A DNA stretch of 64,000 nt from a virus. Under the pieces are notes generated by a model that ran no database searches, was not told where the DNA came from, and saw nothing but the letters and a program-made list of their open reading frames with translations. A program made the position numbers and the translations under genes. Position 1 is the first letter of the stretch, and the number at the start of each line of letters is the position of its first letter. The stretch lies in the IMG/VR virus record IMGVR_UViG_3300011008_000186, one strand, 5' to 3'. Positions 11,391 to 35,535 of the stretch are shown here, piece after piece.

Positions 11391-11792
11391 TTAATTTGAT
11401 GGAATGGTCTGACTATCGGATGTCTTTTTTAATATAGCCGTAGCATCCTCGGATAATGGTAAACAGAATCTTCCCTGCTCATCTATATAACATCCTTCCA
11501 TGTAGCCAATAGTCAACTTATTTTCGGCATCAAGTTCCCAATCGCCAATATCCGAGCTTCCTCCGCTTCGAACATAAACCGATCCGCCTTTCTTGATCAC
11601 GAGCATCATGTCGCAGAATCCGGCGTCGTCTCCGATTGCCTCTACTTCTTCAATGGCGTATTCGGATCCCCCGAGAATGAGAATATCTGCCTCCCATGTT
11701 CCATAATACTTTTCGGCTGGATCCGAAGAACCGCATGCTGCAAGACTTAATATCATTGCTAACGACATAATAATACAAATAATTTTTTTCAT
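11391..11792 (-). CDS. lipoprotein (moron-like)
   Basis: 133 aa. Lipobox LSLAAC. Bracketed by the two identical terminators. Confidence 0.7.
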   Translation of the reverse strand: MKKIICIIMSLAMILSLAACGSSDPAEKYYGTWEADILILGGSEYAIEEVEAIGDDAGFCDMMLVIKKGGSVYVRSGGSSDIGDWELDAENKLTIGYMEGCYIDEQGRFCLPLSEDATAILKKTSDSQTIPSN

Positions 11793-15700: not shown

Positions 15701-16896
15701 GAAAATGGATAAGGTACCTTAGCATCTTCGCAGTATTCTTTGTACATTTCGTAAGCTGTAGCCAATGAGATCGAATCTTCTTTTTTAAAAACGAAATACG
15801 AGTCAAGAACAAAATCGTAGAAATCATTTGATGCATCGATCATAGTTTCGGGAATATAATCATCATATGCACTGGGATCGGATTCATAAACCTGTTTACA
15901 ATGATATGCTATCCCTCCTAATTCGAAGTCAATGTCTTTTATCAAACGCCTGTATTCTTTTGGTGGGATTAATTTTCCGGTTGGACTTACGTCAATCAAA
16001 CGTCTGATGATGCCGGACTTTGCATCGGTAATCCTGACTGGTTTATTAGTTCCCATAAATAAAAAAGAATTAAATCGCATGTTATATAAACCTTTGAACT
16101 TTTCATTCACTGGCATTTCCTCATGTGATGTTAAAGAATTTAATTTGGTATTGTCTTCGATTCGTGATAGATCGCCGTCATGCTGTATGGCGACTAGTGG
16201 ATTGTCTTTCAATGACTCCAAAGCAAATGCGTTTCCTGCTTGTCCCAAAGCCTTTGCGTCGAACGTTCCGTAATATCCAGCGAATAGCTTTTGAATGATA
16301 TTAAGAACAGTTGACTTTCCTGTTCCACTTGCGCCATACAGCACTAAAAACTTTTGAATTTTCTTACTGGCACCATTTATTATAGCACCAATCGCCCATT
16401 CAATTTTCTTACGCTCTTTCTCGGAATATAATACGGACATCAGAGTATCGTATGCTGGCGTTTTACATTCTTCCAAAGCATATTCTACTCTCTTTGATGA
16501 GTAGTCGCTTTTCTCCGTTTTATCGTTTAAGAATATAATTTTTTCATCAAGAGGTTTCCAGTTTTCTCTTAAATCTTTCGTGCAGTATGTATGCCACGAG
16601 TTTATTATTCTTGTTGACGATGCCTTTATATGGAGAACTTTAACTCTGGGAACGTCTTCGTATTTGTTTTTTAACTCCTCCCGATACTTTTCGGCGTAAT
16701 TGTCCAGTTCTCTATCGATAATATCAAGCACATCTTGCTCGTCAGTGCTCCAACGATGTTCTTCCTCCAGCCAAATAGCATAGAAGTCTTTTCCTCGAAT
16801 CATTAAATCTTTCGACTTAATTATCTTAAATTCCGGATAGACTTCCACAACTCCTTTCTTCCCGGGACGGGTTAAAATTTGAAGGAAGTCGAACAC
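12742..16896 (-). CDS. fused SF3 (D5-like) helicase - AEP primase - family B DNA polymerase
   Basis: 1384 aa. Motifs: Walker A GASGTGKST; AEP-like HIFVDFD and SDAGIHLHY; PolB ExoI YDVETF, ExoII FNCRKYD, ExoIII YCCNDV; motif A LDIASMHPS; motif B KIAINSVYG; motif C HIKTDS. Confidence 0.85.
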   Translation of the reverse strand: MFDFLQILTRPGKKGVVEVYPEFKIIKSKDLMIRGKDFYAIWLEEEHRWSTDEQDVLDIIDRELDNYAEKYREELKNKYEDVPRVKVLHIKASSTRIINSWHTYCTKDLRENWKPLDEKIIFLNDKTEKSDYSSKRVEYALEECKTPAYDTLMSVLYSEKERKKIEWAIGAIINGASKKIQKFLVLYGASGTGKSTVLNIIQKLFAGYYGTFDAKALGQAGNAFALESLKDNPLVAIQHDGDLSRIEDNTKLNSLTSHEEMPVNEKFKGLYNMRFNSFLFMGTNKPVRITDAKSGIIRRLIDVSPTGKLIPPKEYRRLIKDIDFELGGIAYHCKQVYESDPSAYDDYIPETMIDASNDFYDFVLDSYFVFKKEDSISLATAYEMYKEYCEDAKVPYPFSKRAFKEELKNYFEKFDIRSNDNARTRSVYSGFKTGLFKKNYKSFEENSQGENSEKTSPNDWLDLKLRDSILDDILKDCTAQYATVLADGRDRPRTAWDKVKTKLSDLDTTKLHYILAPEINGMAHIFVDFDLKDENGNKSFELNKKAASTWPKTYAETSKSDAGIHLHYIYTGDVSKLDNIYAENIEIKICEGKRALRRKLTRCNDQPIATISSGLPLKKEVQVVNSKEIQNEKHLRRLIINSMHKEYQPGTKPSMDFIVKLFQDAYNSDISYDLSDMYELIWDFAANSTHHADYCLGLLDTIKFKSKDHEEEVSEITDWSVAEVENDNEPVTIYDVETFKNLFVICWKYYDVDMPVITMINPTPDECLEFSKKKLVGFNCRKYDNHIVYGRIQHLTLEGLFELSQSIILNKSKSVFYGPAYDMSYTDIYDYCSKKQSLKKWEIELNNKCQSDYDKANKFHKDGLSDEEISKKLDIPIDTVQLYISKPYQPIVHKELGIPWDEPVPESRWEEVASYCCNDVLATEAVFKLTQKIIFGNERHPQSSFNYRNMAEGADHCLFDDEYTCFTSDEKPVFPGYEYKYVKILSKNGKTEKGAFKSLYRGEEVGEGGYVYAEPGIYYNVALLDIASMHPSSAIAEWLFGKYTQNFQDIVNARIFIKHKDFESAKKLFNGKLAKYLDDPDQAKQLAQALKIAINSVYGLTSASFENPFKDPRNKDNIVAKRGALFMINLKHQVQKRGFTVAHIKTDSIKIPNATPEIIQFVMDYGKLYGYNFEHEATYDKMCLANNAVYICYHDGKWDATGTQFQVPYVFKTLFSKEPIEFSDMCETKSVTGDSALYLDMNEFLPDVSELEKEYDKKLKELNKNDNDILREDLDQLSNQIAKGHNYQFVGRVSSFCPVKDGCGGGLLYRCKDGKYYSVAGSSIELEEEHNGKIVKIKKTYRWLEADVANNLNTPIARDYYDYLVVEARKAISVHGDVDEFINK

Positions 16897-23962: not shown

Positions 23963-24583
23963 TTAATTCTCCTTTTTTCGTATATCGATACGACCGTAGT
24001 CATAAATATCAATAGCAACTTCAAAATCCGCATGTGGCGAATTCAATACAACTTCGTCTATCTGTGTATCGAATATCGGACTATTCGAAAAATTCTCCGT
24101 GAACTTACTAACATTTTCAGCAAATGCCTCTGCGTCTTCTTTCCTTCTGAAGAAATAATAATCTTCAAACGGATCGCCATCATCATATGGGTTATCAGAC
24201 AGTACCGTGCATCGATAAGTTGTAATATCGCATCCATAAAGTGATTGTAAGCGGTTTACATCTTTTGAAGTGTGGCCATCCCAATGCTTAGCTGTTTCGA
24301 GTTCCTGGCATGTAAACTTATACCAATGCTTAAGTTCATAATGATAAGTATATGATCCTCTTGGCGTATCGATCCCGACTATAAAGTATTCACCATTAAA
24401 ACATGGACTTCCATCTTCATGTCTTTTGCTTTTCCAAGATCGCTCAGGATAAGCATCAACTAAAGCTATTGTTAAATATAATCTCTGCTCATAAAGATCG
24501 TTGAATGTATGATAACCATCGGACAACTCTCCGATTCCACCCTCTGGTATTTTTGTTAATAAATCTCTAGCTAACTCTGCCAT
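23963..24583 (-). CDS. hypothetical protein
   Basis: 206-aa ORF with GGAGG upstream. Confidence 0.6.
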   Translation of the reverse strand: MAELARDLLTKIPEGGIGELSDGYHTFNDLYEQRLYLTIALVDAYPERSWKSKRHEDGSPCFNGEYFIVGIDTPRGSYTYHYELKHWYKFTCQELETAKHWDGHTSKDVNRLQSLYGCDITTYRCTVLSDNPYDDGDPFEDYYFFRRKEDAEAFAENVSKFTENFSNSPIFDTQIDEVVLNSPHADFEVAIDIYDYGRIDIRKKEN

Positions 24584-24614
24584 TTTAATTACCTCCTATT
24601 TTTAGACAATAAAA

Positions 24615-24643
24615 AGGAGCGGTTTAAAGTCTCGCTCCAAGAC
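24615..24643 (-). terminator. conserved hairpin element, divergent copy
   Basis: Minus strand: GTCTTGGAGCGAGACTTTAAACCGCTCCTTTTT. The stem GGAGCG/CGCTCC covaries with GAGCA/TGCTC of the other five copies. Confidence 0.5.
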
Positions 24644-24670
24644 TGTTTTAGTGGTTTAAAATATAATTAA

Positions 24671-25006
24671 TTATTCATCGAATGCCGGACAACTCGCTTT
24701 ACATTCTGGATAAGGTCCACCACAATTAGCGCATCCCCATGGGATATCACTAGTGTCTTCATATTCCCAATCGTCTTCGTCCATAGTATATCCGCAATTA
24801 AAGCATTTAAATTCTCGTTCCAAATTGCTGTATCTCATCTCAATACCGCATTCGGGGCAATTTGGACAAAAGCCGGAATAATCAGGAATATCATGATAAC
24901 CTTCGTCATCATCATCGGGACCATATCCGTGAAGTCGATCGTGCGCATATGAGCTTTCCGGATGATCGCCAGAACCAGAAAATATATTACCTAAAAACTT
25001 GAACAT
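24671..25006 (-). CDS. multi-zinc-ribbon protein
   Basis: 111 aa with CPNCPECG, CFNCG and CANCG ... CKASC. Confidence 0.6.
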   Translation of the reverse strand: MFKFLGNIFSGSGDHPESSYAHDRLHGYGPDDDDEGYHDIPDYSGFCPNCPECGIEMRYSNLEREFKCFNCGYTMDEDDWEYEDTSDIPWGCANCGGPYPECKASCPAFDE

Positions 25007-25068
25007 TGTGCAACCTCCTCTTAATTTGTAAGGAGATTATACAATGTTTCAACAAGTTTTACTATATT

Positions 25069-26055
25069 TTATTTCGATTCTTCCAAAATGTTTATTCCGA
25101 TTTTTTCTTTGACTTTTAGCGCAATTTCATTGATCGATTTACGTCCAAGATTCCTAATATTTTGGAGTTGTTCAAGATGAGATTTTCCCGGACGCGAATC
25201 CAAATAGCACAATAGATCGTCAATTGTATGTATCCCTTTCCGGATAAGACAGTTGCGGGATCTTACTGACAGTTCAAGTTCATCGATGGACTCTAAATAT
25301 AAATTTATTTCGTTGACGTCCACATCTTTCGAATTAATTAATTGAGTTTTTCTTTTAATATATTCTTCATACTCTTTTTCAAAAAGCTCAATCTCTTTCT
25401 TTCGCTGACATCCATTATAGCCATATAATATCAATGCGCTACGAGAACTATGACGCATTTTTCGAACAGCTTTGGCAATTATCTGCCGTATTCGCTCTCT
25501 AGTAACATGAAACTTTTTTGCAATTTCATCATACGTCTCATTATTCTGATAGTAGCAAATAATACAATCCCTTTCTCTCTGTGAAAGCATCTGCAGCGCA
25601 TTTGCTAAACCTTGTTCCTGATCGTTAGTAAGCATAGAGTTGCCATTCAAATAATCGCTTCCGTTAAAAATAACATCGAGCAGGTTATAAGGATAAGGAG
25701 CAATAAAACCATCCGGTATTTCAATAGTTTTATTCTTATTCCTTGGAACTTTCTGAGAATAAAGATACTGTTCATATGAATTTCTACGGGCTAAATTGTA
25801 AAAATTAGCAAGTAACATCTTTATATCATGTTCTTCTAATTCGGTCAGGTTCGTTCTTCCTAAAATATAATCTGTCGGAACCATAAAGAAATCGGCCATC
25901 GCCATCAAAGTATTAACAGTCGGAGCTGCGTACATGCCGATGTAATTTTTTAACTGAGTTTCCTTGATTCCTATTTTTCTAGCGAGATCTCTTTGCGAAA
26001 TCTGAGCCAAATCCATTAGTTCTTTTAATTTACTTGAATCCCATTTTTTATTCAT
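25069..26055 (-). CDS. chimeric transcription factor: XRE-HTH + sigma-70 region 4 + RNAP alpha C-terminal-domain-like module
   Basis: 328 aa. Three modules: the N-terminus ISQRDLARKIGIKETQLKNYI (XRE HTH); the middle LSQRERDCIICYYQNNETYDEIAKKFHVTRERIRQIIAKAVRKMR (sigma region 4.2 pattern); and the C-terminus ELELSVRSRNCLIRKGIHTIDDL...NIRNLGRKSINEI, which is nearly the E. coli alpha-CTD pattern [22 protein letters not shown]...NLGKKSLTEI. Confidence 0.7.
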   Translation of the reverse strand: MNKKWDSSKLKELMDLAQISQRDLARKIGIKETQLKNYIGMYAAPTVNTLMAMADFFMVPTDYILGRTNLTELEEHDIKMLLANFYNLARRNSYEQYLYSQKVPRNKNKTIEIPDGFIAPYPYNLLDVIFNGSDYLNGNSMLTNDQEQGLANALQMLSQRERDCIICYYQNNETYDEIAKKFHVTRERIRQIIAKAVRKMRHSSRSALILYGYNGCQRKKEIELFEKEYEEYIKRKTQLINSKDVDVNEINLYLESIDELELSVRSRNCLIRKGIHTIDDLLCYLDSRPGKSHLEQLQNIRNLGRKSINEIALKVKEKIGINILEESK

Positions 26056-26057
26056 AT

Positions 26058-26420
26058 CTAATTCTCCTTATTTTGTTTTTTTTTTTGGCACCAAATCGGT
26101 TGATTATCATTTTCATCAATATCATCGTTCTCTGAAAATTTATGAAGCGTATTCAATCCAAAGCATTCGTTCGTGAATAGATCCATACACCCTAAACATC
26201 CGGAAGGAATGATACTTTTCAATGGTTTTTCGTTATCTCTGATAAGAAAGCCACAATTCTGCATGTCATTAATATACTCTTCGAATACGGTGCCCTGAAA
26301 TAAAGAAGAGAGAGGGATAAATTGATCCCCCTCGTCGTTCATGATTAATCCAAAATTCCGTTTAATTATTGCAAATTGATTACGAAATTCACTTTTATCT
26401 AGTTCTGCTGCTAAAATCAT
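26058..26420 (-). CDS. hypothetical protein
   Basis: 120-aa ORF. Confidence 0.55.
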   Translation of the reverse strand: MILAAELDKSEFRNQFAIIKRNFGLIMNDEGDQFIPLSSLFQGTVFEEYINDMQNCGFLIRDNEKPLKSIIPSGCLGCMDLFTNECFGLNTLHKFSENDDIDENDNQPIWCQKKKQNKEN

Positions 26421-26440
26421 ATTCTAGTCCTCCATTTTTA

Positions 26441-26854
26441 CTATTCATTTTCCCGAAGTACTTTTTCAAAGGCCAGATCAAGACCAACTGCTACAGCCAT
26501 TAATAATTCTTTGGATCCCTGCGGATCTGTGGCTATACTATCTATGAATTCCAATATTTCTTTTTCAGAATTGCTTTTTGAAAGAGCTTCTTTGGTTCCA
26601 ACATCAATTTTCAAACTTTCAAAAATCATTAACATCGTTTCCTTAGCTTTACTCGGATTAATATCTATCAAATCCACAAGCATATTTATCGATTTGTAAA
26701 ACTGCGGAAAACCATCGAAAATCCGGTTCCCATCGGTACTTTTAACTATTCGAGAGACCGATGGATAAACTGAATTTGTAAACTCCATAAGATCATTTGT
26801 GCGAAGATTTCCAGAAGTGAATACCTCGTTAAGTCTTTCCTGTGTTGTTAACAT
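26441..26854 (-). CDS. hypothetical protein
   Basis: 137-aa ORF with GGAGGAG upstream. Confidence 0.6.
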   Translation of the reverse strand: MLTTQERLNEVFTSGNLRTNDLMEFTNSVYPSVSRIVKSTDGNRIFDGFPQFYKSINMLVDLIDINPSKAKETMLMIFESLKIDVGTKEALSKSNSEKEILEFIDSIATDPQGSKELLMAVAVGLDLAFEKVLRENE

Positions 26855-26898
26855 GTTTCTACTCCTCCTAGTTTGAAATATAATTTAAGAAAAATAAA

Positions 26899-26925
26899 AG
26901 AGCAGTTTAAAGTCTTGCTCAGGAC
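26899..26925 (-). terminator. conserved 27-nt hairpin element (copy)
   Basis: Minus strand: GTCCTGAGCAAGACTTTAAACTGCTCT followed by TTTATTTTT. Confidence 0.5.
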
Positions 26926-26945
26926 TTTTTACAATGTAAGGTTTC

Positions 26946-27092
26946 TTAAAATAGAGCTAAGACACCTACTGTTATTATAATTGTAAATATAGTACCTCCC
27001 ATTATTACCCCAGCTATAGTGCCGCTAGTGAATAATATTACAGCAATAGTTACAAATAATACAAATGCTACAATAAATGCTAAAAATCTCAT
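26946..27092 (-). CDS. 48-aa hydrophobic peptide
   Basis: Below the ORF-track cutoff. GAGGAGG before the ATG. Sequence MRFLAFIVAFVLFVTIAVILFTSGTIAGVIMGGTIFTIIITVGVLALF. Confidence 0.45.
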   Translation of the reverse strand: MRFLAFIVAFVLFVTIAVILFTSGTIAGVIMGGTIFTIIITVGVLALF

Positions 27093-27105
27093 TTCATTCA
27101 CCTCC

Positions 27106-27134
27106 TCGTATTAGGGAGTCAAAATTTCGCGAAA
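27106..27134 (-). promoter_or_regulatory. TTCGCGAA-box promoter-like motif (copy 3)
   Basis: Minus strand: TTTCGCGAAATTTTGACTCCCTAATACGA. Confidence 0.5.
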
Positions 27135-27164
27135 AGAAAAAGAGCCTCTTAGAATCGAGACTCT
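27132..27164 (-). terminator. intrinsic terminator
   Basis: Minus strand: AGAGTCTC GATTCTAA GAGGCTCT followed by TTTTCTTTT. Confidence 0.65.
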
Positions 27165-27188
27165 TCGTCTTAAAATATAATCTTCGAG

Positions 27189-27569
27189 TTACTTCTTTAA
27201 TGGTAAGCTGAAAAGATTTCTTTTCATGGTTTTTCCATATTCAGTTGTATCGATCATACCTGCCGCATTAATCGAATCAGCATGCTTAATCGCAAATGCC
27301 TGTGCACCAACACCGATACCAGTTGTTGCCAATGTTGTCGCTATACTAACTTTAGAAATAACATTTTTGGCTTTCTCAACCTCTAATGCATCTCTTTTGT
27401 CTCTGATTTCCGACAATTCTTTAGCATTACTAATAAAGGTATTAGCGTCATCGGGATCACTGCTATTAGCAGCCTTCTCCAATTGCGCAACCATAAGATC
27501 GTCAATCTGGTTACGAATTTCCTGTTCATGTTTCTTTTTTTCTTTCCTTTCTTTAAACCATCTAAACAT
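27189..27569 (-). CDS. hypothetical protein with C-terminal hydrophobic segment
   Basis: Start moved to the ATG at 27569 (MFRWFKERKE), preceded by AAAGGAGG. The upstream 10 codons lie inside the promoter-like motif. Confidence 0.55.
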   Translation of the reverse strand: MFRWFKERKEKKKHEQEIRNQIDDLMVAQLEKAANSSDPDDANTFISNAKELSEIRDKRDALEVEKAKNVISKVSIATTLATTGIGVGAQAFAIKHADSINAAGMIDTTEYGKTMKRNLFSLPLKK

Positions 27570-27593
27570 ATCGTTACCTCCTTTGATTTTATA

Positions 27594-27623
27594 TTTCATA
27601 ATAGTGCTATAATTTTTCGCGAA
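27594..27623 (-). promoter_or_regulatory. TTCGCGAA-box promoter-like motif (copy 4)
   Basis: Minus strand: TTCGCGAAAAATTATAGCACTATTATGAAA. Confidence 0.5.
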
Positions 27624-27659
27624 TACAGAATATAATAAATTGTTGTCACCTGCGTCGGA

Positions 27660-27869
27660 TTATTCGATCAGACTTTGTTCGGCTTTATCTAAACCATCTA
27701 ACCATAACATAAATTTTCTACAGCATGATGGGCATAAGTCAAGTTCGGACTCGTCGTACTTTGCCAGCTCATCATCGCAGAACCGAGCAACACTCGCGTC
27801 AATAGTGACGACGACCCGATGATAGTCGTCTACTATTCTGCGACATTTGTCACAAAAATGTTTTACCAT
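27660..27869 (-). CDS. zinc-ribbon protein
   Basis: 69 aa starting MVKHFCDKC, with CPSCC. AAGGAGG lies before the ATG at 27869. The longer 169-aa track ORF is a read-through artefact. Confidence 0.55.
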   Translation of the reverse strand: MVKHFCDKCRRIVDDYHRVVVTIDASVARFCDDELAKYDESELDLCPSCCRKFMLWLDGLDKAEQSLIE

Positions 27870-27963
27870 ATTTAATCCTCCTTGTTTGAAAATAGTAATA
27901 CAAAAGCGATAAAACCCAAGTTGCCTCCTAAAAGAAATGCAATTGGTAAATACCACCACGGTA

Positions 27964-28230
27964 TCATAATTCTTCTCCTTTCTCTTCGTAGTATTCATCG
28001 TCTTCAAATACTTTTCTAAAATTAACAGCATGGCGAACGTCAGTAGTTCGTTTACAATCCGGAAAGCATTTACCATCTTCGCATCTCTGCCGATCGCAAA
28101 TATAAGTAACTTTAGGACAAATAGGCATATTTTTAATAACTGTAATAACCCAGGTGGGTACATCGGCATTAATTTTTTCAGATATACTAAGTCTTTTTAA
28201 AAGATCATTTTTATCGATATATTCGTTCAT
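27964..28230 (-). CDS. Cys-rich hypothetical protein
   Basis: 88-aa ORF. Confidence 0.55.
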   Translation of the reverse strand: MNEYIDKNDLLKRLSISEKINADVPTWVITVIKNMPICPKVTYICDRQRCEDGKCFPDCKRTTDVRHAVNFRKVFEDDEYYEEKGEEL

Positions 28231-28257
28231 AATGGTAGTTAACCTTTCATTATTTAT

Positions 28258-28605
28258 TTATCCTCTATCGTTTATCATGGTAGTTCCTATAGCATATGTT
28301 CTTCCGCAATAAGGACACATAAATATATGCTTATTGGCGTTCAGTTCTATTGTTCCTCCACAAGAATTGCATTTGTGTTCCAGAACAGGAACTTCTGATA
28401 AAGATTGCATGAATTCTTCGAATAATGCTTTCTTAACATTATCTGACAAATTAATTTCAAATTCTCCTTGCGAAACGCGTATCTTATTAATGAACCGATG
28501 ATCACTCGAAGTTGCTGGCTCATAAATTTTGGAGTTTCTTCTCCCTCCTGGTGTGGTAATTAACGTATTCGACATATCACTTACATTAATTGTAGCTTGG
28601 TCCAT
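28258..28605 (-). CDS. zinc-ribbon protein
   Basis: 115 aa with CNSCGG ... CPYCG. GGAG ATTATATTT ATG start context. Confidence 0.6.
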   Translation of the reverse strand: MDQATINVSDMSNTLITTPGGRRNSKIYEPATSSDHRFINKIRVSQGEFEINLSDNVKKALFEEFMQSLSEVPVLEHKCNSCGGTIELNANKHIFMCPYCGRTYAIGTTMINDRG

Positions 28606-28637
28606 AAATATAATCTCCTTTCATTATTAAAATGAAA

Positions 28638-28709
28638 CAACGGCAGCAGGAATCGAACCTACATATACTGGGTCAAAGCCAGTCACACTCACCATTGTGC
28701 TATGCCGCT
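28638..28709 (-). tRNA. tRNA-Gln (anticodon UUG)
   Basis: Hand-folded cloverleaf. Acceptor AGCGGCA/TGCCGTT; D stem GCAC/GTGT; anticodon stem ACTGG/CCAGT with loop CTTTGAC; T arm GTAGG-TTCGATT-CCTGC; no encoded CCA. Confidence 0.8.
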
Positions 28710-28713
28710 AAAA

Positions 28714-28740
28714 AGAGCAGTTTAAAGTCTTGCTCAGGAC
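28714..28740 (-). terminator. conserved 27-nt hairpin element (copy)
   Basis: Identical core. Its T-run ends 4 nt before the 5' end of tRNA-Gln. Confidence 0.5.
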
Positions 28741-28749
28741 TACTTCGTA

Positions 28750-29265
28750 TTACTCTATTTTTATTCCGGTTATTTCTTCAAAAATATCCGCATCAAAATT
28801 GGGTAATGCCTTGATTTTTTCTTCATCGCCGTCAATAAGTGTTTTATCATTTATGCGGCAGCATAATTTGCAAAAATTATAATCAAGCGCATTCAGCCAT
28901 TCACTTCTTGTCATGTCATATTCCCGGTTAAATGCTCTCAGCTTCGGTTCGTTCGTATTGAATATTCCACTGTTGTAGTTTCCACTGTTGTAGTTTCCGC
29001 TGTTCCAGTTTCCACTGTTGCAGTTTCCGCTGTTGTGTCTTCCACTGTTCCAGTTTCCGCTGTTCCAGTCTCCACTGTTCCAGTGTCCACTGTTGCGCAT
29101 TCCGCTGTTGTAGTATCCACTATTGTGCATTCCGCTGTTGCAGTTTCCGCTGTTGCAGTTTCCGCTGTTGCCGTTTCCGCTGTTGCAGTTTCCACTGTTG
29201 CGCATTCCGCTGTTGTAGTATCCACTATTGTAGTTTCCACCAAAACTTTGTCCCTTCCTGTTCAA
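28750..29265 (-). CDS. pentapeptide-repeat protein (C-terminal part of a split gene)
   Basis: About 20 consecutive x-N-S-G-x pentapeptides (NSGYY NSGMR NSGNC NSGNG ...), followed by a 70-aa tail. No ATG; the track start is TTG. Confidence 0.6.
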   Translation of the reverse strand: MNRKGQSFGGNYNSGYYNSGMRNSGNCNSGNGNSGNCNSGNCNSGMHNSGYYNSGMRNSGHWNSGDWNSGNWNSGRHNSGNCNSGNWNSGNYNSGNYNSGIFNTNEPKLRAFNREYDMTRSEWLNALDYNFCKLCCRINDKTLIDGDEEKIKALPNFDADIFEEITGIKIE

Positions 29266-29470
29266 TATTCCCTAATGCTTCTATTACGGCAATCTTAGTC
29301 TCGCCGTCCATTGGATAATAGCCGAATACGTCTATTGGGTTTGCGCAAAAGTGGAATCCGCATTTGCACATCTTTAACTTTTCTCCCTCGGCAAGTTCAT
29401 ATGTCTTTCCGATTTCATACTGGAAATCTCTACACGTCCAATCTTTGTTAAATGCCTTATACCCTTTCAT
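29225..29470 (-). CDS. N-terminal part of the same split gene (KAFNKDWTCRDFQYEIGKTYE domain)
   Basis: 81 aa with a good SD. As I recall, this domain is normally fused to pentapeptide repeats. The frames are joined by skipping one T of the T4 run at 29242..29245. Confidence 0.6.
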   Translation of the reverse strand: MKGYKAFNKDWTCRDFQYEIGKTYELAEGEKLKMCKCGFHFCANPIDVFGYYPMDGETKIAVIEALGNIEQEGTKFWWKLQ

Positions 29471-29492
29471 TTTTAATTCCTCCTAATTTTTA

Positions 29493-30332
29493 TTAATTCC
29501 AGCAATAAATGCCTCTTTCTGTGTAAATATAATCGTTCGGAATTGTGCAGCCATTACAATATTTACAATACGTAGGATCCTGATAACACATAAGTAAATA
29601 ATCATATGCGTAATCAGCAATTCCAAGACTATCCATCCAGGTTCCATATTGGGTGTCTATTTCGCCAAAAGCAGAATATAAATTTCCATACCCCCAATAG
29701 TCTTCCGTTGCACGAACCCAACAGCAACATGCGACATAATAGCTGAGCATGCTCTCTCCGTAACCTTCATAGGTTATAAGCTTAAGTGTTCTTTCAGTGT
29801 CTAAGTGACTAATACCATACCGATCAAGCCCAAGTTCAAATACATCATCAGATGAATCGAACACAATTGGCTGATCAGGAATCTCGGCATAAGCTAAAGA
29901 TTCTTGTATATTATTATTACTCGCGATTTTAGGGGTAATATGCGAACATAATTCGTCTATTGCTTGCTGCACTTCATCGAATCGATCACCGAGAGCTATT
30001 TTTCTTTCCTCGCCATTGCCAAAAGATCCTTGAAGCACTGCATCAATGAGTTCGTCAATAGTCATGGAAGAAATATAATCTTCCGTTTCGATTTTTACAT
30101 TAACTTCTACATCGGTTTCTTCCACAAAAGTTTCTTCCGAGTCAGATGACGATTCTGGAAATTCTTCGGCAACGGCGACTCTCGGTATCGAGGTCTCCAA
30201 AATAGTTTCGGTTGTTTCTTGAGTCGTTTCCTCGATTAGTTCATTTGAGTTATTATGCTCACTTATAAATACCAATGTTGCAGCTGAGATAATAACTACA
30301 ATAATACATATTACTGCGTACTTTGCTTTCAT
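29493..30332 (-). CDS. membrane-anchored/secreted protein with CW_7 (Cpl-7-like) cell-wall-binding motif and a Cys/aromatic-rich C-terminal domain
   Basis: 279 aa. N-terminal TM segment. AVLQGSFGNGEERKIALGDRFDEVQQAI fits the CW_7 repeat. The C-terminal YEGYGESMLSYYVACCCWVRA is possibly SleB-like hydrolase (weak). Confidence 0.5.
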   Translation of the reverse strand: MKAKYAVICIIVVIISAATLVFISEHNNSNELIEETTQETTETILETSIPRVAVAEEFPESSSDSEETFVEETDVEVNVKIETEDYISSMTIDELIDAVLQGSFGNGEERKIALGDRFDEVQQAIDELCSHITPKIASNNNIQESLAYAEIPDQPIVFDSSDDVFELGLDRYGISHLDTERTLKLITYEGYGESMLSYYVACCCWVRATEDYWGYGNLYSAFGEIDTQYGTWMDSLGIADYAYDYLLMCYQDPTYCKYCNGCTIPNDYIYTERGIYCWN

Positions 30333-30360
30333 GTTTCATACTCCTTTAAATAAAAATAAA

Positions 30361-30387
30361 AGAGCAGTTTAAAGTCTTGCTCAGGAC
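30361..30387 (-). terminator. conserved 27-nt hairpin element (copy)
   Basis: Identical core, 25 nt upstream of the ATG at 30332. Confidence 0.5.
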
Positions 30388-30446
30388 TTATACAAAGGAG
30401 TACGATTATGGACATACTCCTTCTGATCTAATTAAAAAGAAGAGCC

Positions 30447-30536
30447 TTAGTAGGCCCTTCCCTTATGCATAAACTCGATTATTGCTTTTATAATACCCCG
30501 TACTGTTTCTATTGCTAGTTCAATTCTAATCGTCAT
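30447..30536 (-). CDS. 29-aa peptide cassette
   Basis: MTIRIELAIETVRGIIKAIIEFMHKGRAY. AAAGGAGA lies 7 nt before the ATG. Promoter-like motif upstream, hairpin plus T-run downstream. Confidence 0.35.
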   Translation of the reverse strand: MTIRIELAIETVRGIIKAIIEFMHKGRAY

Positions 30537-30573
30537 GGCGTATTCTCCTTTCTGTAAAAAACATAATCTTGTT

Positions 30574-30606
30574 TCTGCATAATAGGACAACTAAAAATCG
30601 CGAAAA
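30574..30606 (-). promoter_or_regulatory. TTCGCGAA-box promoter-like motif (copy 5, TTTCGCGATT variant)
   Basis: Minus strand: TTTCGCGATTTTTAGTTGTCCTATTATGCAGAA. Confidence 0.45.
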
Positions 30607-30641
30607 AAAAAGAGAGCCCACGCCCTCTTAACTATTTGCAA

Positions 30642-30947
30642 TTAATATTCAATGACGCTTATAGTACCGTCATCGTTAATAACTGTCTGATAGTTAGAGT
30701 TCATAGACTCCTCTTTTTTGCTAACAATTTCTTTTGCTTCTTTCAAGACTTTAAGTCCATTCGTTACTCGTTTTGCGTGCCAAGGCAATAAAACTACCTC
30801 AGCGATCGTTGCTGCTGTTAGAACTGCTGCAGTCTTCTTAACTGCTTTTTCATCTGCAAGCATGTCAAACGTTTCTGCAAGATCTTCTGAGGCCTGTTTA
30901 AAATCATCCTCGGTTACTCCAAAACCTAAATATCTTTTAATGTTCAT
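30642..30947 (-). CDS. hypothetical protein
   Basis: 101-aa ORF with AAAGGAGA upstream. Confidence 0.6.
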   Translation of the reverse strand: MNIKRYLGFGVTEDDFKQASEDLAETFDMLADEKAVKKTAAVLTAATIAEVVLLPWHAKRVTNGLKVLKEAKEIVSKKEESMNSNYQTVINDDGTISVIEY

Positions 30948-30986
30948 AATGTTCTCCTTTCATATATAAGCAAACACTAATAGTTA

Positions 30987-31018
30987 TCTTCATATAAGGA
31001 GACCAAAATTTCGCGAAA
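30987..31018 (-). promoter_or_regulatory. TTCGCGAA-box promoter-like motif (copy 6)
   Basis: Minus strand: TTTCGCGAAATTTTGGTCTCCTTATATGAAGA. Confidence 0.55.
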
Positions 31019-31029
31019 AAAAAAAAAAG

Positions 31030-31056
31030 AGAGCAGTTTAAAGTCTTGCTCAGGAC
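31030..31056 (-). terminator. conserved 27-nt hairpin element (copy)
   Basis: Identical core followed by T14, then the promoter-like motif. Confidence 0.5.
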
Positions 31057-31071
31057 TTTGAATATTATTAA

Positions 31072-31386
31072 TTAACTGATATACTCCGATCTTATTTTCT
31101 GAAGCACAATACTTAGTACTCTGTTCTCTGCCATTGTGTTTAGTTTTCTTGTGACAAATGGTGCCAAAGCAAATTGCAGAGCGTAACCAACATTAAACAT
31201 CGCTTCCTCTTCATCTAAGTTTGATATAAGTTCATCAAAATCAAATGTCTCGTCATCGATCATTTGTTGTATTGCATTCTCTGCAGCTTTTGCTGCAACA
31301 TCATTATCCAATAAAACTTTTATAGCATTAAACGGAGTTCCTGGTAAAAATGTTCTGATAATAAATTTTTTAATGCCCTTATTCAT
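31072..31386 (-). CDS. hypothetical protein
   Basis: 104-aa ORF with GGAGG upstream. Confidence 0.6.
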   Translation of the reverse strand: MNKGIKKFIIRTFLPGTPFNAIKVLLDNDVAAKAAENAIQQMIDDETFDFDELISNLDEEEAMFNVGYALQFALAPFVTRKLNTMAENRVLSIVLQKIRSEYIS

Positions 31387-31415
31387 ATCAATTACCTCCT
31401 AAAATATAATATTAT

Positions 31416-31444
31416 TCTTCATATAAGGAGACTAAAATTTCGCG
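31416..31444 (-). promoter_or_regulatory. TTCGCGAA-box promoter-like motif (copy 7)
   Basis: Minus strand: CGCGAAATTTTAGTCTCCTTATATGAAGA. It overlaps the 3' end of the ATPase ORF. Confidence 0.5.
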
Positions 31445-32082
31445 TTCCGATATCTTCTATCTTTTGTTTTCTTGGTCTTTAAAATATAATCTCGATACTC
31501 TTCGTAATTAGCAAAAGTAATATATTTGCCAACTGCTACATCAAGACATTTTTCACCGCGAGCAAGTTCGTATTCATTTGCTGCCGCAACAATATAAATT
31601 GCAACATTTTTATTAGTATCAATAATGGCATCGAACAATTCTTTGAGCTCGATAATGCCATCAATCGAAAAACCAGAATCTACAGAATCCATTAATATCC
31701 ATATTTCCTCAATACCAATGCGAGCACGAATATTTGTACCTATCTTTTTAGCAAATAAATGTAAATTCTGTTTTATACGTTCGCCTTCTGACGACATTAC
31801 TTGATCGGCGAGAAGATCGTAACGTTGAAGTTGCAAGAATTGCTGCCAATTATTTCCGCTGCCATCATGTAAATTATCATATGCTATATATAAAACATTA
31901 TGCTTCTTACATTGTTCCTCTATATTATTTAATAAAGTAGTTTTGCCAATTCCGTTGCACCCGACAAGAACAGTCAGACCGAGCTCAAATTGTATCTCTC
32001 GTTTATAGGTTGTCGAGAATCCAATATCATAAGGATCCCTCCAAGTTTTTATCAGCCCATTTAATTTTCCAAACGAGTTCAT
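31432..32082 (-). CDS. minimal ABC/SMC-type ATPase
   Basis: 216 aa from the ATG at 32082 (AAAGGAGA upstream). Walker A GCNGIGKTT, signature-like SSEGE, Walker B plus D-loop IWILMDSVDSGFS. Confidence 0.6.
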   Translation of the reverse strand: MNSFGKLNGLIKTWRDPYDIGFSTTYKREIQFELGLTVLVGCNGIGKTTLLNNIEEQCKKHNVLYIAYDNLHDGSGNNWQQFLQLQRYDLLADQVMSSEGERIKQNLHLFAKKIGTNIRARIGIEEIWILMDSVDSGFSIDGIIELKELFDAIIDTNKNVAIYIVAAANEYELARGEKCLDVAVGKYITFANYEEYRDYILKTKKTKDRRYRNAKF

Positions 32083-32160
32083 TATGCGATCTCCTTTCTG
32101 CAAAAAAAAAATAAGAAAAGAAAAAGAGGACATCATTTCTAATGTCCTCAACATTTCTAT

Positions 32161-32436
32161 TTAGTCTACTGAGTGAAACTCGATGTTCGTGAAATGCGGA
32201 TCTGATGACATGTTAAATTCGAATTCAATTCCTGCTGCATCAAACGTCATTGATAATTTATCATCTTTTACCAACATACAATAACTACCACCATCGGGCG
32301 TCATCATTGCTACGCCGTAATTTTTCTCATTATCAATAATGTTAATTACAACATTATTGTATTCGCCGTTACTGTCAATAAATCCAGCTTCAACTAAAGA
32401 TGTTCCTCTTTGTACTGAAATAAAATGTTTCTGCAT
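32161..32436 (-). CDS. hypothetical protein
   Basis: 91 aa from the ATG at 32436 (AAAGGAGG upstream). The longer track ORF reads through the repeat elements. Confidence 0.55.
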   Translation of the reverse strand: MQKHFISVQRGTSLVEAGFIDSNGEYNNVVINIIDNEKNYGVAMMTPDGGSYCMLVKDDKLSMTFDAAGIEFEFNMSSDPHFTNIEFHSVD

Positions 32437-32477
32437 TGTTAAGTTCCTCCTTTTCGTTTTTACAAAATTGTTATATA

Positions 32478-32512
32478 TCTTTTCATATAAGGAGACCAAA
32501 ATTTCGTGAGAA
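32478..32512 (-). promoter_or_regulatory. TTCGCGAA-box promoter-like motif (copy 8, TCACGAA variant)
   Basis: Minus strand: TTCTCACGAAATTTTGGTCTCCTTATATGAAAAGA. Confidence 0.5.
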
Positions 32513-32519
32513 AAACAAA

Positions 32520-32546
32520 AGAGCAGTTTAAAGTCTTGCTCAGGAC
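32520..32546 (-). terminator. conserved 27-nt hairpin element (copy)
   Basis: Identical core. Confidence 0.5.
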
Positions 32547-32564
32547 TATACCGATGGTTATAAT

Positions 32565-32780
32565 TTACCAAATAGACATTAAGGTTTCTTTAATAAAAAG
32601 TGCATCTTCATCGCCGTCTCTTATCGAGTCGTTCAACCATTCAATCGTGCAATCTCTATGTTCATCATCGGTGTTTCTTATAGCATCGATGATATCGGGA
32701 TTACAAGCTTTTAAATAATTAATAAACTCTTCTTGCTCGACATTTTCGCAAATATTGTTTGCACATACAGTAATTTCCAT
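32565..32780 (-). CDS. hypothetical acidic protein
   Basis: 71 aa from the ATG at 32780 (AAAGGAGA upstream). Confidence 0.55.
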   Translation of the reverse strand: MEITVCANNICENVEQEEFINYLKACNPDIIDAIRNTDDEHRDCTIEWLNDSIRDGDEDALFIKETLMSIW

Positions 32781-32818
32781 AATGTTCTCCTTTCCCCATT
32801 GACGCAAATTAATATTCA

Positions 32819-32852
32819 TCTTTTCATATAAGGAAACCAAAATTTCGCGAAA
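32819..32852 (-). promoter_or_regulatory. TTCGCGAA-box promoter-like motif (copy 9)
   Basis: Minus strand: TTTCGCGAAATTTTGGTTTCCTTATATGAAAAGA. Confidence 0.55.
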
Positions 32853-32865
32853 AAAAAATAGAGAG

Positions 32866-33030
32866 AAACAAGAATGGCTGGACCGCCACTTATTATGCAC
32901 TTTAACCGAATATAATTCGTAACTCCTTGCGGATATTTATTTCAAAGCTTCGGCGCCCTTACATCTTGGGGGTGCATTACCTGCCCCGAAGGCCAATTAA
33001 CAGTATACATTCCTGTATACCTGACACATT
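32866..33030 (-). ncRNA. ORF-less cassette: GC-rich candidate small RNA (about 160 nt)
   Basis: Lies between promoter-like motif copy 10 and a T9 run. There is no SD-preceded ORF. Local hairpins include GTATAC-AGGAAT-GTATAC, GCC-TTCGG-GGC, GGGG...CCCC and TCC-GCAA-GGA. It shares ordered blocks with 1..105. Confidence 0.4.
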
Positions 33031-33031
33031 C

Positions 33032-33066
33032 TTGTTCGTATAAGGAGACCAAAATTTCGCGAGAAA
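33032..33066 (-). promoter_or_regulatory. TTCGCGAA-box promoter-like motif (copy 10)
   Basis: Minus strand: TTTCTCGCGAAATTTTGGTCTCCTTATACGAACAA. Confidence 0.5.
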
Positions 33067-33093
33067 AAGAGGAGACCAAATCAGGACTCCTCT
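33063..33093 (-). terminator. intrinsic terminator
   Basis: Minus strand: AGAGGAGTCCTGATTTGGTCTCCTCT followed by TTTTT. Confidence 0.65.
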
Positions 33094-33101
33094 GACTACA
33101 T

Positions 33102-33227
33102 CTACTTTATATAGTCTACTGCTTCTTTTATGCCTTCTTTGATCTCCTCTTTAGCATCTTCAATGCCTTCTCCAATTTCTTTTGCTGCATCTTTTACGCT
33201 ATCAATTATTTCTCTTAAAAATCCCAT
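33102..33227 (-). CDS. 41-aa charged helical peptide
   Basis: MGFLREIIDSVKDAAKEIGEGIEDAKEEIKEGIKEAVDYIK. TAATG overlap with the upstream stop codon. Confidence 0.4.
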   Translation of the reverse strand: MGFLREIIDSVKDAAKEIGEGIEDAKEEIKEGIKEAVDYIK

Positions 33228-34485: not shown

Positions 34486-35535
34486 ATGGCCAAATATAGT
34501 AAATATATAACATTAGGGTATAATTCGGACGGAAACCGTGTAAGGAAACGAGCTTACGGCAACACAAAAATCGAATTGGAATCAAATATAGCCAGGTTAA
34601 AAAGAGAATATCTTGAATCGATTGCCAATAATCACGTAACGTTTAAAAAGTATGCACAAACTTGGCTCAACACATATAAAAAAGGGACCTCGCCGAGAAC
34701 TTATGATATGTATGATCAGTTATTGAAGAAGTGCAAAGAGCTCGATCCGTTCGAAATGATGGAGATCAAACGATCCGATATACAAAATCTGATGAATGAT
34801 TTAATAGATAGACCGAATCTGCATAACAAAGTATTAATGTGCCTTAATCAGGTGTTTGAGTCGGCAATAATGGACGAAATCGTTCGAATTAATCCGGTAA
34901 AAGGAATATCAAAGCAAAAAACAATAGTAAAAGAAAAACGTGCGTTGACAACAAACGAGAAAAGAATACTAGCAACTATCAACTTCGAGCCGAAAGAACA
35001 GATGTTTATTGATCTGCTTCTCAATTTTGGATTACGTCCTGGAGAAGCACTTGCGTTAACAAAAGATGACTTCGATTTCGCAAATAATACATTGACCATC
35101 AGCAAGGCGATTACTTTCGTTACTAATGATCCTATATTAAAGGGTACAAAAACCGGGACAGTTAGAACGCTTCCCATCCCGGCTTCATTAGTACCCAAAA
35201 CGAAACAATACCTTGACGAATCTGAAAATATACTTTTTGACATGCAAAAACAAGGAGACTATGGATATATGACAAAAATGGCCTACCGAATATTCAAAAA
35301 TGAAATATTCGAGAAAATTAATATTGCATTAGGAGGTAACAATAATAATGACAAGTTAAACGGTATGACTTTTTATACTTTCCGACATAACAAAGCTACT
35401 GCTTTATACTATGTGGATGGGTTGAGTTTAAAAGCCAAGGCGGAGTATATGGGTCATTCGGTAAGCATGCTTCTTAAAATATATTCTCATATTGACAAGG
35501 AAAAGGAAAATAGCGAAAAATATAATGTGATTTAA
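34486..35535 (+). CDS. int: tyrosine recombinase / phage integrase
   Basis: 349 aa. N-terminal SAM-like core-binding region. Catalytic-domain landmarks GLRPGEALAL, YTFRHNKAT, MGHS and a C-terminal KIYSH (Tyr nucleophile). Confidence 0.85.
   Translation: MAKYSKYITLGYNSDGNRVRKRAYGNTKIELESNIARLKREYLESIANNHVTFKKYAQTWLNTYKKGTSPRTYDMYDQLLKKCKELDPFEMMEIKRSDIQNLMNDLIDRPNLHNKVLMCLNQVFESAIMDEIVRINPVKGISKQKTIVKEKRALTTNEKRILATINFEPKEQMFIDLLLNFGLRPGEALALTKDDFDFANNTLTISKAITFVTNDPILKGTKTGTVRTLPIPASLVPKTKQYLDESENILFDMQKQGDYGYMTKMAYRIFKNEIFEKINIALGGNNNNDKLNGMTFYTFRHNKATALYYVDGLSLKAKAEYMGHSVSMLLKIYSHIDKEKENSEKYNVI

Follow-up and report, generated by a model that had tools for sequence, protein, structure and literature searches.

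The window analyzed here is a 64,000-nt stretch of viral DNA, IMG/VR record IMGVR_UViG_3300011008_000186, and our subject is a 27-nt element that recurs on its minus strand, which we discuss below as a putative module of gene 3' ends. The window is an AT-rich phage genome (~38% GC) in which nearly all genes lie on the minus strand. Among its genes are those for a YonO-like single-subunit RNA polymerase (RNAP) (phrog_4291, 868-3711), a YorL-like DNA polymerase (12742-16896), a helicase, and, on the plus strand, a tyrosine integrase (34486-35535), and the combination of the two polymerases with the integrase implies that this is an SPbeta-like temperate phage. A megablast comparison of 24000-33200 with GenBank phages gave no match and so no close relative in which synteny could be followed.

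Small cassettes succeed one another from 27 to 33 kb, and at the borders of many stand an ordinary hairpin terminator, a T-run, and a promoter-like motif, TTCGCGAAA-N12-TCCTTATATGAA. This motif is present in ~10 copies, always on the gene strand, directly behind terminator T-runs and 30 to 60 nt before start codons. Its cores lie at 33035-33061, 32823-32849, 32482-32508, 31418-31444, and 30989-31015 on the minus strand, with looser copies near 30610, 27620, 27135, 20827, and 4647. It fits the sigma-70 consensus poorly, and a shorter version, TTTCGC-TCCTTATATGAA, is found in two related contigs, L045 and L141.

Within and beyond these cassettes, the exact 27-mer GTCCTGAGCAAGACTTTAAACTGCTCT occurs five times on the minus strand (26899-26925, 28714-28740, 30361-30387, 31030-31056, and 32520-32546), against none expected in 100 shuffles, and a looser pattern recovered a diverged sixth copy at 24622-24644 on the same strand, as an initial annotation of the window had described. 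The functional unit begins one base earlier than the 27-mer (AGTC...) and finishes at ...TGCTC, and the coordinates given from here on are those of this unit. Every copy is intergenic, lies behind a TAA stop codon, and is followed directly by a T-run (6/6), the T-run having also been recorded correctly.

Copy 1 (32521-32547; AGUC-CU-GAGCA-A-GACU-UUAAAC-UGCUC) starts 17 nt past the TAA of an open reading frame (ORF) at 32565-32780 and is followed, at 32494-32520, by a U-tract, UUUUGUUUUU, and then the upstream half of the promoter-like motif, CACGAAATTTTGGTC. Copy 2 (31031-31057), 14 nt past the TAA of ORF 31072-31386, is followed at 30989-31030 by the U-tract UCUUUUUUUUUUUUU and an exact promoter-like motif, CGCGAAATTTTGGTCTCCTTATATGAA (30989-31015). 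With this strongly repeated motif directly behind them, copies 1 and 2 fill the same pre-promoter slot as the canonical hairpin terminators at 33090, 30629, and 27166. Copy 3 (30362-30388) is 58 nt past the stop codon of a small ORF (30447-30590; 47 aa), and behind it come UUUUAUUUUU and, 29 nt on, the ATG of ORF 29493-30332, which encodes a CW_7 repeat protein. The interval between that stop codon and copy 3 (30389-30446, minus strand) holds two further ordinary hairpins, one with a T-run, so that three successive structured elements stand within 85 nt ahead of the promoter-less CW_7-repeat gene. Copy 4 (28715-28741) lies 8 nt past the TAA of a pentapeptide-repeat ORF (28750-29265), and only a UUUU spacer (28711-28714) separates it from a tRNA-Gln(UUG) gene (28637-28710; Rfam bounds, 28638-28709). 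The 5' end of this tRNA had been placed 4 nt after the T-run; it is instead 4 nt past the end of the element, and the T-run of 4 to 5 nt is itself the spacer. Copy 5 (26900-26926), 19 nt past the TAA of a small membrane ORF (26946-27101), is followed by the same UUUUAUUUUU and, 45 nt on, by the ATG of ORF 26441-26854. The diverged copy 6 (24616-24644; AGUC-UU-GGAGCG-A-GACU-UUAAAC-CGCUCC) lies 26 nt past the TAA of a Zn-ribbon ORF (24671-25006) and is followed by UUUUUAUUG and, 32 nt on, the ATG of a WDGH-domain ORF (23963-24583). The relatives of the WDGH gene that we compared lie in unrelated gene contexts, in which there is no pseudoknot. All of these features are on the minus strand. Four copies are thus followed by a gene or tRNA with no promoter-like motif in between, as originally stated, and the motif follows the other two (those whose upper coordinates are 31057 and 32547).

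Structure and covariation of the element

The element had been read as offering two mutually exclusive hairpins. In the order AGUC (positions 1 to 4), CU, GAGCA (7 to 11), A, GACU (13 to 16), UUAAAC, UGCUC (23 to 27), stem 1 (S1; 1-4/13-16) and stem 2 (S2; 7-11/23-27) use disjoint bases, and the strands of the two stems are interleaved. Stems that interleave and share no base form together, as a single H-type pseudoknot, laid out as S1a-L1-S2a-L2-S1b-L3-S2b (a and b being the two strands of a stem and L1 to L3 the loops). S1 (AGUC/GACU) has 4 bp with an invariant closing C-G pair, L1 is CU, the junction is a single nucleotide, and the A-rich L3 ends in AAAC; the lengths of L1 and L3 are geometrically compatible with such a fold, in which a short L1 crosses the deep groove of S2 and an L3 of at least 3 to 4 nt crosses the shallow groove of S1. 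The diverged copy retains both stems, AGUC/GACU and GGAGCG/CGCUCC, and reading of the minus strand upheld the compensatory change that had been pointed out in its S2 (GGAGCG/CGCTCC). The family consensus is NNNC-CU-GAGCA-N-GNNN-(N1-4)AAAC-UGCUC.

The covariation of the element was followed in public collections, which we searched with patterns that freed one part of it per search; all counts from these collection scans are lower bounds. When S2 was freed, the bases past L3 could still pair with S2a, in dozens of viral contigs with no relation to one another, through compensatory variants (GACCA/TGGTC, TGGCA/TGCCA, GGGGCA/TGCCCC, AAGCA/TGCTT, and GGGAGC/GCTCTC) as well as variants with G-U pairs (GAGTA/TGCTC and GGGCA/TGTTC). 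Because a G-U pair is an A-C mismatch on the opposite strand, these last variants imply that the element acts as RNA on the gene strand. When the loops were freed, L1 remained a 2-nt CU in >95% of instances, the junction remained 1 nt, and L3 varied from 4 to 8 nt, ending in AAAC. When S1 was freed completely, all four positions paired in 100 of 125 viral instances and three of four in the other 25 (chance, ~5%), and the 125 instances contained 37 distinct S1 sequences. When the retrieved DNA (1.65 Mb) was scanned for the structure, 259 instances appeared, compared with 0 in the reversed sequence.

For a formal count of covariation, both free-stem samples were pooled, without any filter for pairing, in a single alignment (A1). 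In A1, 96.0% of cells were paired, compared with 79.7% in shuffled alignments and 25 to 38% with slid partners; double-sided changes were present at seven of the nine pairs; and the covariation score was 0.408 (0.108 after shuffling), with 0 of 500 shuffles attaining the observed score. The most conserved bases cluster at the helical junction (the closing C-G pair of S1, the CA/UG end of S2, the CU of L1, and the AAC of L3), as would be seen if the loop bases packed against the helices in loop-helix triples like those of luteoviral frameshift pseudoknots; the triples predicted for the junction involve a C+ in L1 and the AAAC of L3 in the minor groove of S1. Taken together, these results indicate that the element is almost certainly a compact H-type RNA pseudoknot on the coding strand and belongs to a large family. 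Since covariation keeps both stems at once, in hundreds of sequences, there would be no switch between them, and the claim of mutually exclusive folds falls.

Distribution, position, and neighbors of the family

Judged by its sequence matches, the family is very large and is found in tailed-phage genomes and prophages of many phyla. The motif was present in hundreds of unrelated viral contigs, among the matches listed, and in ~40 cultured phages found by short-query and composite BLAST searches of GenBank phages. These include Lactobacillus phages (KC5a, Lj771, phi jlb1, phiEF-1.1, and several L. helveticus phages), Geobacillus phage D6E, Bacillus phage Edson, Mycobacterium phage Labelle, Arthrobacter phage Molivia, Paracoccus phage ParMal1, Lentibacter phages ICBM1-3, Celeribacter phage P12053L, and the cyanophages S-EIVl, S-RIM4, Nostoc NMeng1, and Microcystis Mwe-JY13, with hosts in the Firmicutes, Actinobacteria, Cyanobacteria, and Proteobacteria. 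Genome matches came from Saccharibacteria and other groups of the candidate phyla radiation (CPR), Clostridia, Lachnospiraceae, Bacteroidota, Verrucomicrobiota, Cyanobacteria, Omnitrophota, Desulfobacterota, and Pseudomonadota, with many bacterial metagenome-assembled genomes (MAGs), and from a few archaeal MAGs labeled Methanobrevibacter and Thalassarchaeaceae; a few of all these genome matches are clearly chance matches inside genes. Many contigs carry four to six copies, the S1 sequences of which differ.

No Rfam 15 family matched the element at an E value of ≤10, whether the query was 14 kb, 81 nt, or the six copies of a contig from another lineage (L064); families without a match include preQ1-I/II/III, SAM-II/V, fluoride, guanidine-III, hammerhead, twister, pistol, hatchet, hepatitis delta virus (HDV)-like, and others. 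Literature searches by topic, by literal sequence, and through the RAGATH motifs found no description of the motif, although one outside those sources is possible, and the family is apparently undescribed so far. Several other identities were rejected. A solitary clustered regularly interspaced short palindromic repeat (CRISPR) does not fit the irregular spacing or an S2 that pairs across L3; an integron attC site or miniature inverted-repeat transposable element (MITE) does not fit the unconserved flanks or the G-U pairs, which point to RNA; the CUGAGCA of the element is unlike the CUGANGA of a hammerhead core, and there was no Rfam match; a selenocysteine insertion sequence (SECIS) element shows no similarity, and the UGA of the motif has no frame preference relative to the upstream ORF; and the resemblance of UUUAAAC in L3 to a coronavirus slippery heptamer is a coincidence, given that L3 varies (UAAAAC, AUAAAC, and ACUAAAAC).

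Across the family, the element is positioned with respect to the gene before it. A same-strand ORF ended within 300 nt upstream in 230 of 237 instances, and the gap from its stop codon to the pseudoknot had a mode of 5 to 8 nt (74/230) and was <4 nt in only three instances, in which the stop codon overlaps S1. Distances from the pseudoknot to the next start codon were spread broadly, from 10 to 400 nt. Unbiased samples showed the same positional behavior as the instances selected by the structural scan. This anchoring to the stop codon, and not to the next start codon, implies that the element belongs to the end of the upstream gene, and it seems to be placed about as near the stop codon as a terminating ribosome would permit. 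In Labelle and S-EIVl it begins a few bases past a stop codon, and in KC5a and D6E it follows a protease or portal gene and precedes the genes for the scaffold and the major head protein. The three bases 5' of the pseudoknot are A-rich, the base 3' of it is A in 56% of instances, and the spacers between stop codon and pseudoknot showed no reading-frame preference. By crude ORF calling, only an opposite-strand ORF follows in 39 cases, and convergent and divergent gene contexts differ by a mild asymmetry only. Protein clustering showed that the flanking genes are diverse, with no recurrent partner protein family, which makes a dedicated protein-binding role unlikely.

What follows the element falls into a few recurrent types. 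A run of at least four T's started within 18 nt in 145 of 446 instances (33%), compared with 32 of 446 (7%) in a control window, mostly at an offset of 0 to 3. A same-strand tRNA (Asp, Ser, Arg, Met, Asn, or Gln) started 2 to 13 nt past S2 in 40 of 482 instances (8%), with modes at 4 and 7 nt, and in none of the 482 did a tRNA end <25 nt upstream of the pseudoknot; the arrangement with tRNA-Gln in the window exemplifies this general, directional rule. The last base of S2 is also where type III hammerheads start, twice in contig L210 (7541-7595 and 7271-7325, minus strand; 50.5 and 41.2 bits) and once in L257 (2285-2336, plus strand; 30.2 bits), and hammerhead cores are visible past the element in L129, L206, and L302 as well. 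The 158-nt DUF2800 RNA (RF02960) starts 1 to 2 nt past the element in L316 (285-445) and L259 (5051-5208) and directly past the motif in L236 (5432-5592). The pseudoknot with a hammerhead or DUF2800 RNA is a recurrent tandem of structured RNAs in prophage-like DNA. Directly behind S2, ACCA was present in 24 of 446 instances (1.7 expected; 0 to 3 at other offsets), in many unrelated contigs, and ACC was present in 42 of 446 (5.2 expected); CCA is encoded by 48% of the real tRNA genes in the same loci.

One group of bacterial MAGs carries the motif beside a conserved micro-ORF of ~20 aa, MK[RK][FY]x[VI]PRxAHCxEGC[RK]xxS, with its own sigma-70-like promoter and Shine-Dalgarno sequence (contigs L184, L216, L227, L232, L235, L246, L266, L267, L277, and L283). 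Its stop codon is the UGA within the pseudoknot's invariant CC-UGA-GCA, its variation is codon-like, and it had no match in Pfam or NCBIfam. A viral contig that also has the pseudoknot, L372, gave a borderline Rfam match to transfer-messenger RNA (tmRNA) at 11486-11558 on the plus strand (47.3 bits, compared with a gathering score of 47), which could be a phage-borne tmRNA or a tRNA-like fragment.

Further features of the window concern its neighboring genes. The reader of the promoter-like motif may be a phage factor or the YonO-like RNAP, the promoter of which is still undefined in the literature (PMC5467207). An ORF of 328 aa (25069-26055, minus strand) combines an N-terminal Cro/C1-type helix-turn-helix domain, a sigma-70 region 4, and a C-terminal domain like that of the RNAP alpha subunit (PF01381, PF04545, and PF03118, all above the Pfam cutoff); this unusual regulator fusion could be another candidate reader. 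In the interval 28750-29470 (minus strand), an N-terminal ORF with a TAG stop (29225-29470) overlaps the pentapeptide-repeat ORF (Pfam Pentapeptide_2) out of frame; the latter is made of a GGAAACTNCAACAG-type DNA repeat, and the whole may be a frameshifted or slippage-prone gene.

Possible roles of the element

We tentatively read the element as a gene-3'-end module, which in this genome would act as a pseudoknot-reinforced, probably leaky terminator and 3' cap, and we put the probability of this reading at roughly 0.45. It draws on the anchoring to stop codons, from the directional pairing of the element, at ~4 to 9 nt, with three devices that make 3' ends (U-tract termination, RNase P cleavage at a tRNA, and hammerhead cleavage), from the pre-promoter sites, and from the cases in which only an opposite-strand ORF lies ahead. 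The pseudoknot would fold just past the stop codon, the upstream RNA would end with it or a few bases beyond it, and 3'-to-5' exonucleases would be stopped by the compact fold, which would protect the upstream mRNA. The 3' end itself would be made by local means, namely, intrinsic termination at a U-tract, RNase P at a tRNA 2 to 13 nt on, or an abutting hammerhead. In the window, S2 buttressed by S1 would serve as the stem of a pseudoknot-type, probably leaky intrinsic terminator, and the promoter-less genes behind copies 3, 5, and 6 would be expressed by read-through. At copy 4, where the tRNA starts 4 nt past S2, transcripts that read through would be cut by RNase P at the 5' end of tRNA-Gln, and the upstream mRNA would then end in the pseudoknot plus 4 nt (UUUU).

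As a lone hairpin, S2 has 5 bp, a 12-nt loop, and a folding energy of -5.1 kcal/mol, compared with -11.3 to -15.8 kcal/mol for the canonical terminators of the window. It is not a stable, GC-rich hairpin with a short loop, and a simple terminator scan listed 0 of the 6 copies. A U-tract behind the stem, past a stop codon, is present at all six copies in the window but at only 33% family-wide. Because S2 alone is weak, any terminator activity would have to come from the whole pseudoknot and would probably be partial, and partial termination would resolve the paradox of promoter-less genes behind a terminator-like element. In these respects, the initial annotation had seen well: the element is real, structured, and at cassette ends, it does look like a weak terminator when taken as one hairpin (-5.1 compared with -11 to -16 kcal/mol), and a fully efficient terminator would indeed silence the promoter-less genes and tRNA-Gln. 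What did not survive of its interpretation was the switch and the N4-like promoter; a processing site, by RNase P or self-cleavage, is still a live alternative. YonO-type RNAPs have no flap domain, which mediates hairpin-dependent pausing and termination in multisubunit RNAPs (PMC5467207), and the YonO-type RNAP of this phage might therefore ignore the pseudoknot sites.

Several points weigh against the gene-3'-end reading. Termination, its leakiness, and protection are all steps that we infer. In the close relatives L045, L043, and L141, the T-run lies 3 to 5 nt away from S2, a poor geometry for intrinsic termination, and there it may belong to the following promoter. Since a plain GC-rich hairpin would suffice for a 3' cap or terminator, the near-invariance of the loop bases across distant phages may signal a more specialized function. 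The ACC(A) enrichment and the abutting tRNAs, hammerheads, and DUF2800 RNAs are equally compatible with a processing or insulating role. Behind 57% of instances there is neither a U-tract nor a tRNA, an ACC tail, or a hammerhead core, which leaves their 3' ends unexplained, and the statistics on position and context come from instances chosen by a pairing-based scan within pattern-retrieved loci, that is, from a biased sample.

A bolder alternative, which we consider unlikely, is that the element is a universal, host-independent processing signal. It would then be a pseudoknot that RNase P naturally cleaves in vivo, a minimal acceptor mimic with which phages of any host could cut and cap their mRNAs, or else a self-cleaving ribozyme smaller than all other natural ones, and it would set the ends of mRNAs thousands of times over in the virosphere, next to stop codons, tRNAs, and other ribozymes. 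The first form of this alternative, taken as an explanation of its own, is somewhat less likely. The element would be a mimic of the tRNA acceptor, cleaved by RNase P in L1 between the invariant U (-1) and the first G of S2 (+1), and so a host-independent mRNA processing site that separates cistrons and gives the downstream RNA a 5'-terminal hairpin. The topology S1a-L1-S2a-S1b-L3-S2b, followed by an A in 56% at +1 past the fold, matches that of known substrates, and Escherichia coli RNase P cuts in vitro, within L1, a small H-type pseudoknot that carries RCCA at its 3' end, the cleavage of pseudoknots by RNase P in vivo being called an open question in the same study (PMC12710915). The preferences of the enzyme are present as well: L1 ended in U in all instances scanned, and S2 usually opens with a G paired with C (117 of 130 sequences in A1, in 110 of which S2 was fixed by the search pattern). 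The spacing of 4 to 7 nt between pseudoknot and tRNA resembles that of tRNA-tRNA spacers in the same loci (mode, 3 nt), and in KC5a and D6E the element stands just upstream of the scaffold and major-head genes. Cleavage in the published system depended, however, on the RCCA (PMC12710915), and CCA is present at 0 of the 6 copies in the window, which have UUUU. ACC(A) behind S2, even if enriched 8- to 14-fold over chance, is found in 5 to 9% of instances only, compared with the 48% of tRNA genes that encode CCA. There is no T-loop or other mimic of the tRNA body, the anchoring to stop codons and the absence of tRNAs <25 nt upstream are unlike a member of a tRNA array, and the constancy of the L1 CU is stricter than a preference at -1, which fits a structural role.

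The abutting RNAs could also be the beneficiaries, if the pseudoknot were a protective 5' cap or folding insulator that shields the downstream RNA from 5'-to-3' decay (by RNase J or 5'-end-dependent RNase E) or from upstream ribosomes and misfolding, a role that we think improbable. It would account for the tRNAs (2 to 13 nt away), hammerheads, and DUF2800 RNA on the 3' side, for the placement of the element in 5' leaders, 15 to 40 nt ahead of start codons, in several families, and for its position in KC5a and D6E, ahead of head genes with high expression. The role sits badly with the sharp peak in the distance to the upstream stop codon and the broad spread in the distance to downstream start codons, and with the 39 instances that have only an opposite-strand ORF ahead. 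A promoter often intervenes between the pseudoknot and the next gene (copies 1 and 2 in the window and a sigma-70-like promoter in the group of contig L121), and the element is then outside the downstream transcript.

The mode of 5 to 8 nt from the stop codon, with almost no gap of <4 nt, equals the spacer of -1 frameshift pseudoknots, and the architecture, too, is like that of luteoviral frameshift pseudoknots. With the stop codon in the A site, the element would stand at the mRNA entry channel, as frameshift and read-through stimulators do. These likenesses suggest a roadblock for the ribosome, which would modulate termination, block read-through or scanning, or uncouple translation from downstream events, and the micro-ORF family in which the stop codon is the UGA inside the pseudoknot would suit it. 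We nevertheless hold this to be less probable again, because about half of the instances and 5 of the 6 window copies (14 to 58 nt) are too far from the stop codon and because the lower bound on the spacing is explained equally well if the element simply sits as near the stop codon as undisturbed termination allows. The element lacks a slippery heptamer (expected 5 to 9 nt upstream), an extended or overlapping -1 ORF, a read-through ORF, and any frame preference; a stop codon and variable sequence precede the element, the spacers in the window run from 8 to 58 nt, and the sequence downstream is intergenic, so that the hallmarks of -1 frameshifting are absent.

Very improbable, though the second form of a universal processing signal, is a new self-cleaving ribozyme of very small size, by which phage transcripts would be processed between genes. 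The element does have what marks an RNA as "biochemically sophisticated," namely, occurrence in multiple phyla, a pseudoknot, and several near-invariant unpaired bases (PMC5737381). Multiple copies in phages, beside hammerheads, are the context in which other ribozyme classes were discovered, and an activity that needs no partner would account for the use of the element over so wide a range, bacteria as well as archaeal MAGs. At 27 nt, however, it is far below the size of any known natural self-cleaving class, it matches no Rfam ribozyme family, it would be redundant where a hammerhead abuts, and conserved bases clustered at the junction are what fold-stabilizing loop-helix triples would produce. 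Least credible of all is a weak terminator hairpin with a competing hairpin as a terminator/antiterminator switch, or an N4-type DNA hairpin promoter: although either stem can be drawn as a lone hairpin and a U-tract follows in the window, both are already contradicted, the switch by stems that share no nucleotides and covary in the same sequences and by the lack of any partner sequence for an alternative fold, and the promoter by G-U pairs that betray RNA-level selection on one strand, by the pseudoknot, by the anchoring to stop codons, by the spread of the motif over many unrelated phage types, and by dimensions (stems of 4 and 5 bp with "loops" of 8 and 12 nt) that differ from the DNA hairpins of 5 to 7 bp with 3-nt loops used by N4-like virion RNAPs, this genome having a YonO-like RNAP.

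What was first reported as a repeat in one genome appears, then, to be part of something larger, a pan-phage gene-end pseudoknot motif. If the gene-3'-end reading is correct, a single RNA device of 27 nt, conserved nearly base for base, would stand at the gene ends of phages of Firmicutes, Actinobacteria, Cyanobacteria, Proteobacteria, CPR bacteria, and possibly archaea. A pseudoknot-based class would join the known terminators and 3'-end stabilizers and would account for many "terminator-less" phage gene boundaries, improving the annotation of operons and terminators in viromes. Whether pseudoknots are targets of RNase P in vivo was called an open question in 2025, and the element offers a concrete candidate from nature for it. 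Tiny, portable, and apparently host independent, it is a possible part for synthetic biology, as an mRNA 3' cap or as an insulator between cistrons, tRNAs, and ribozymes.

Comparison with known systems

The -1 frameshift pseudoknots of luteoviruses and their kin (beet western yellows virus [BWYV], pea enation mosaic virus 1 [PEMV-1], and sugarcane yellow leaf virus [ScYLV]) are compact H-type folds with a 2-nt L1 starting with C, a 1-nt junction, and an A-rich L3. The element resembles them in size (~27 to 28 nt), in its short interleaved stems, in conservation clustered at the junction, and in the typical distance of 5 to 8 nt, which is theirs from the A-site codon. Unlike them, it follows a stop codon instead of a slippery heptamer and has no -1 ORF, it occurs in many copies in double-stranded DNA phages, often at a larger spacing, and its S2 is longer (5 bp) and its S1 shorter (4 bp).

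The preQ1-I riboswitch aptamer is likewise an H-type pseudoknot of ~30 nt; its L1 is short, and its 3' loop is rich in A and finishes with AAAC. The element gave no match to RF00522, has a single variable junction base and no such ligand pocket, and sits in multiple copies behind genes, whereas preQ1-I lies in the 5' leaders of queuosine genes. A closer parallel in arrangement is the MALAT1/MEN-beta triple helix with mascRNA, in which a compact structure with A-rich contacts also lies upstream of a tRNA-like RNA and the 3' end is made by RNase P, as predicted here for the 40 cases with a tRNA. MALAT1 is a eukaryotic nuclear long noncoding RNA with its A-rich tail sequestered in the triple helix; the element would keep a tail of 4 to 7 nt outside its fold, and most of its instances have no tRNA.

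The tRNA-like structure (TLS) of turnip yellow mosaic virus (TYMV) and the biotin-aptamer pseudoknot (PMC12710915) share with the element the topology S1a-L1-S2a-S1b-L3-S2b, a discriminator-like A, and, in a subset of instances, a CCA; the pyrimidine at -1 and the G at +1 are shared as well, and the element has real tRNAs a few nucleotides downstream. It differs in that CCA is found in 5 to 9% of instances (none in the window), in having no mimic of the T-arm or anticodon domain, in that its cleavage by RNase P is a prediction, and in lying inside polycistronic transcripts of DNA phages instead of at the 3' end of an RNA genome.

Intrinsic terminators and 3' stabilizer hairpins, finally, have more stable stems than that of the element, whose 5 bp and 12-nt "loop" would need the pseudoknot; two-thirds of its family have no U-tract, and its loop sequence, unlike that of ordinary terminators, is conserved across phyla. 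With them it has in common a site on the coding strand just past the stop codon, a U-tract that abuts the fold at all six copies in the window and in about a third of the family, and the slot directly ahead of the next promoter.

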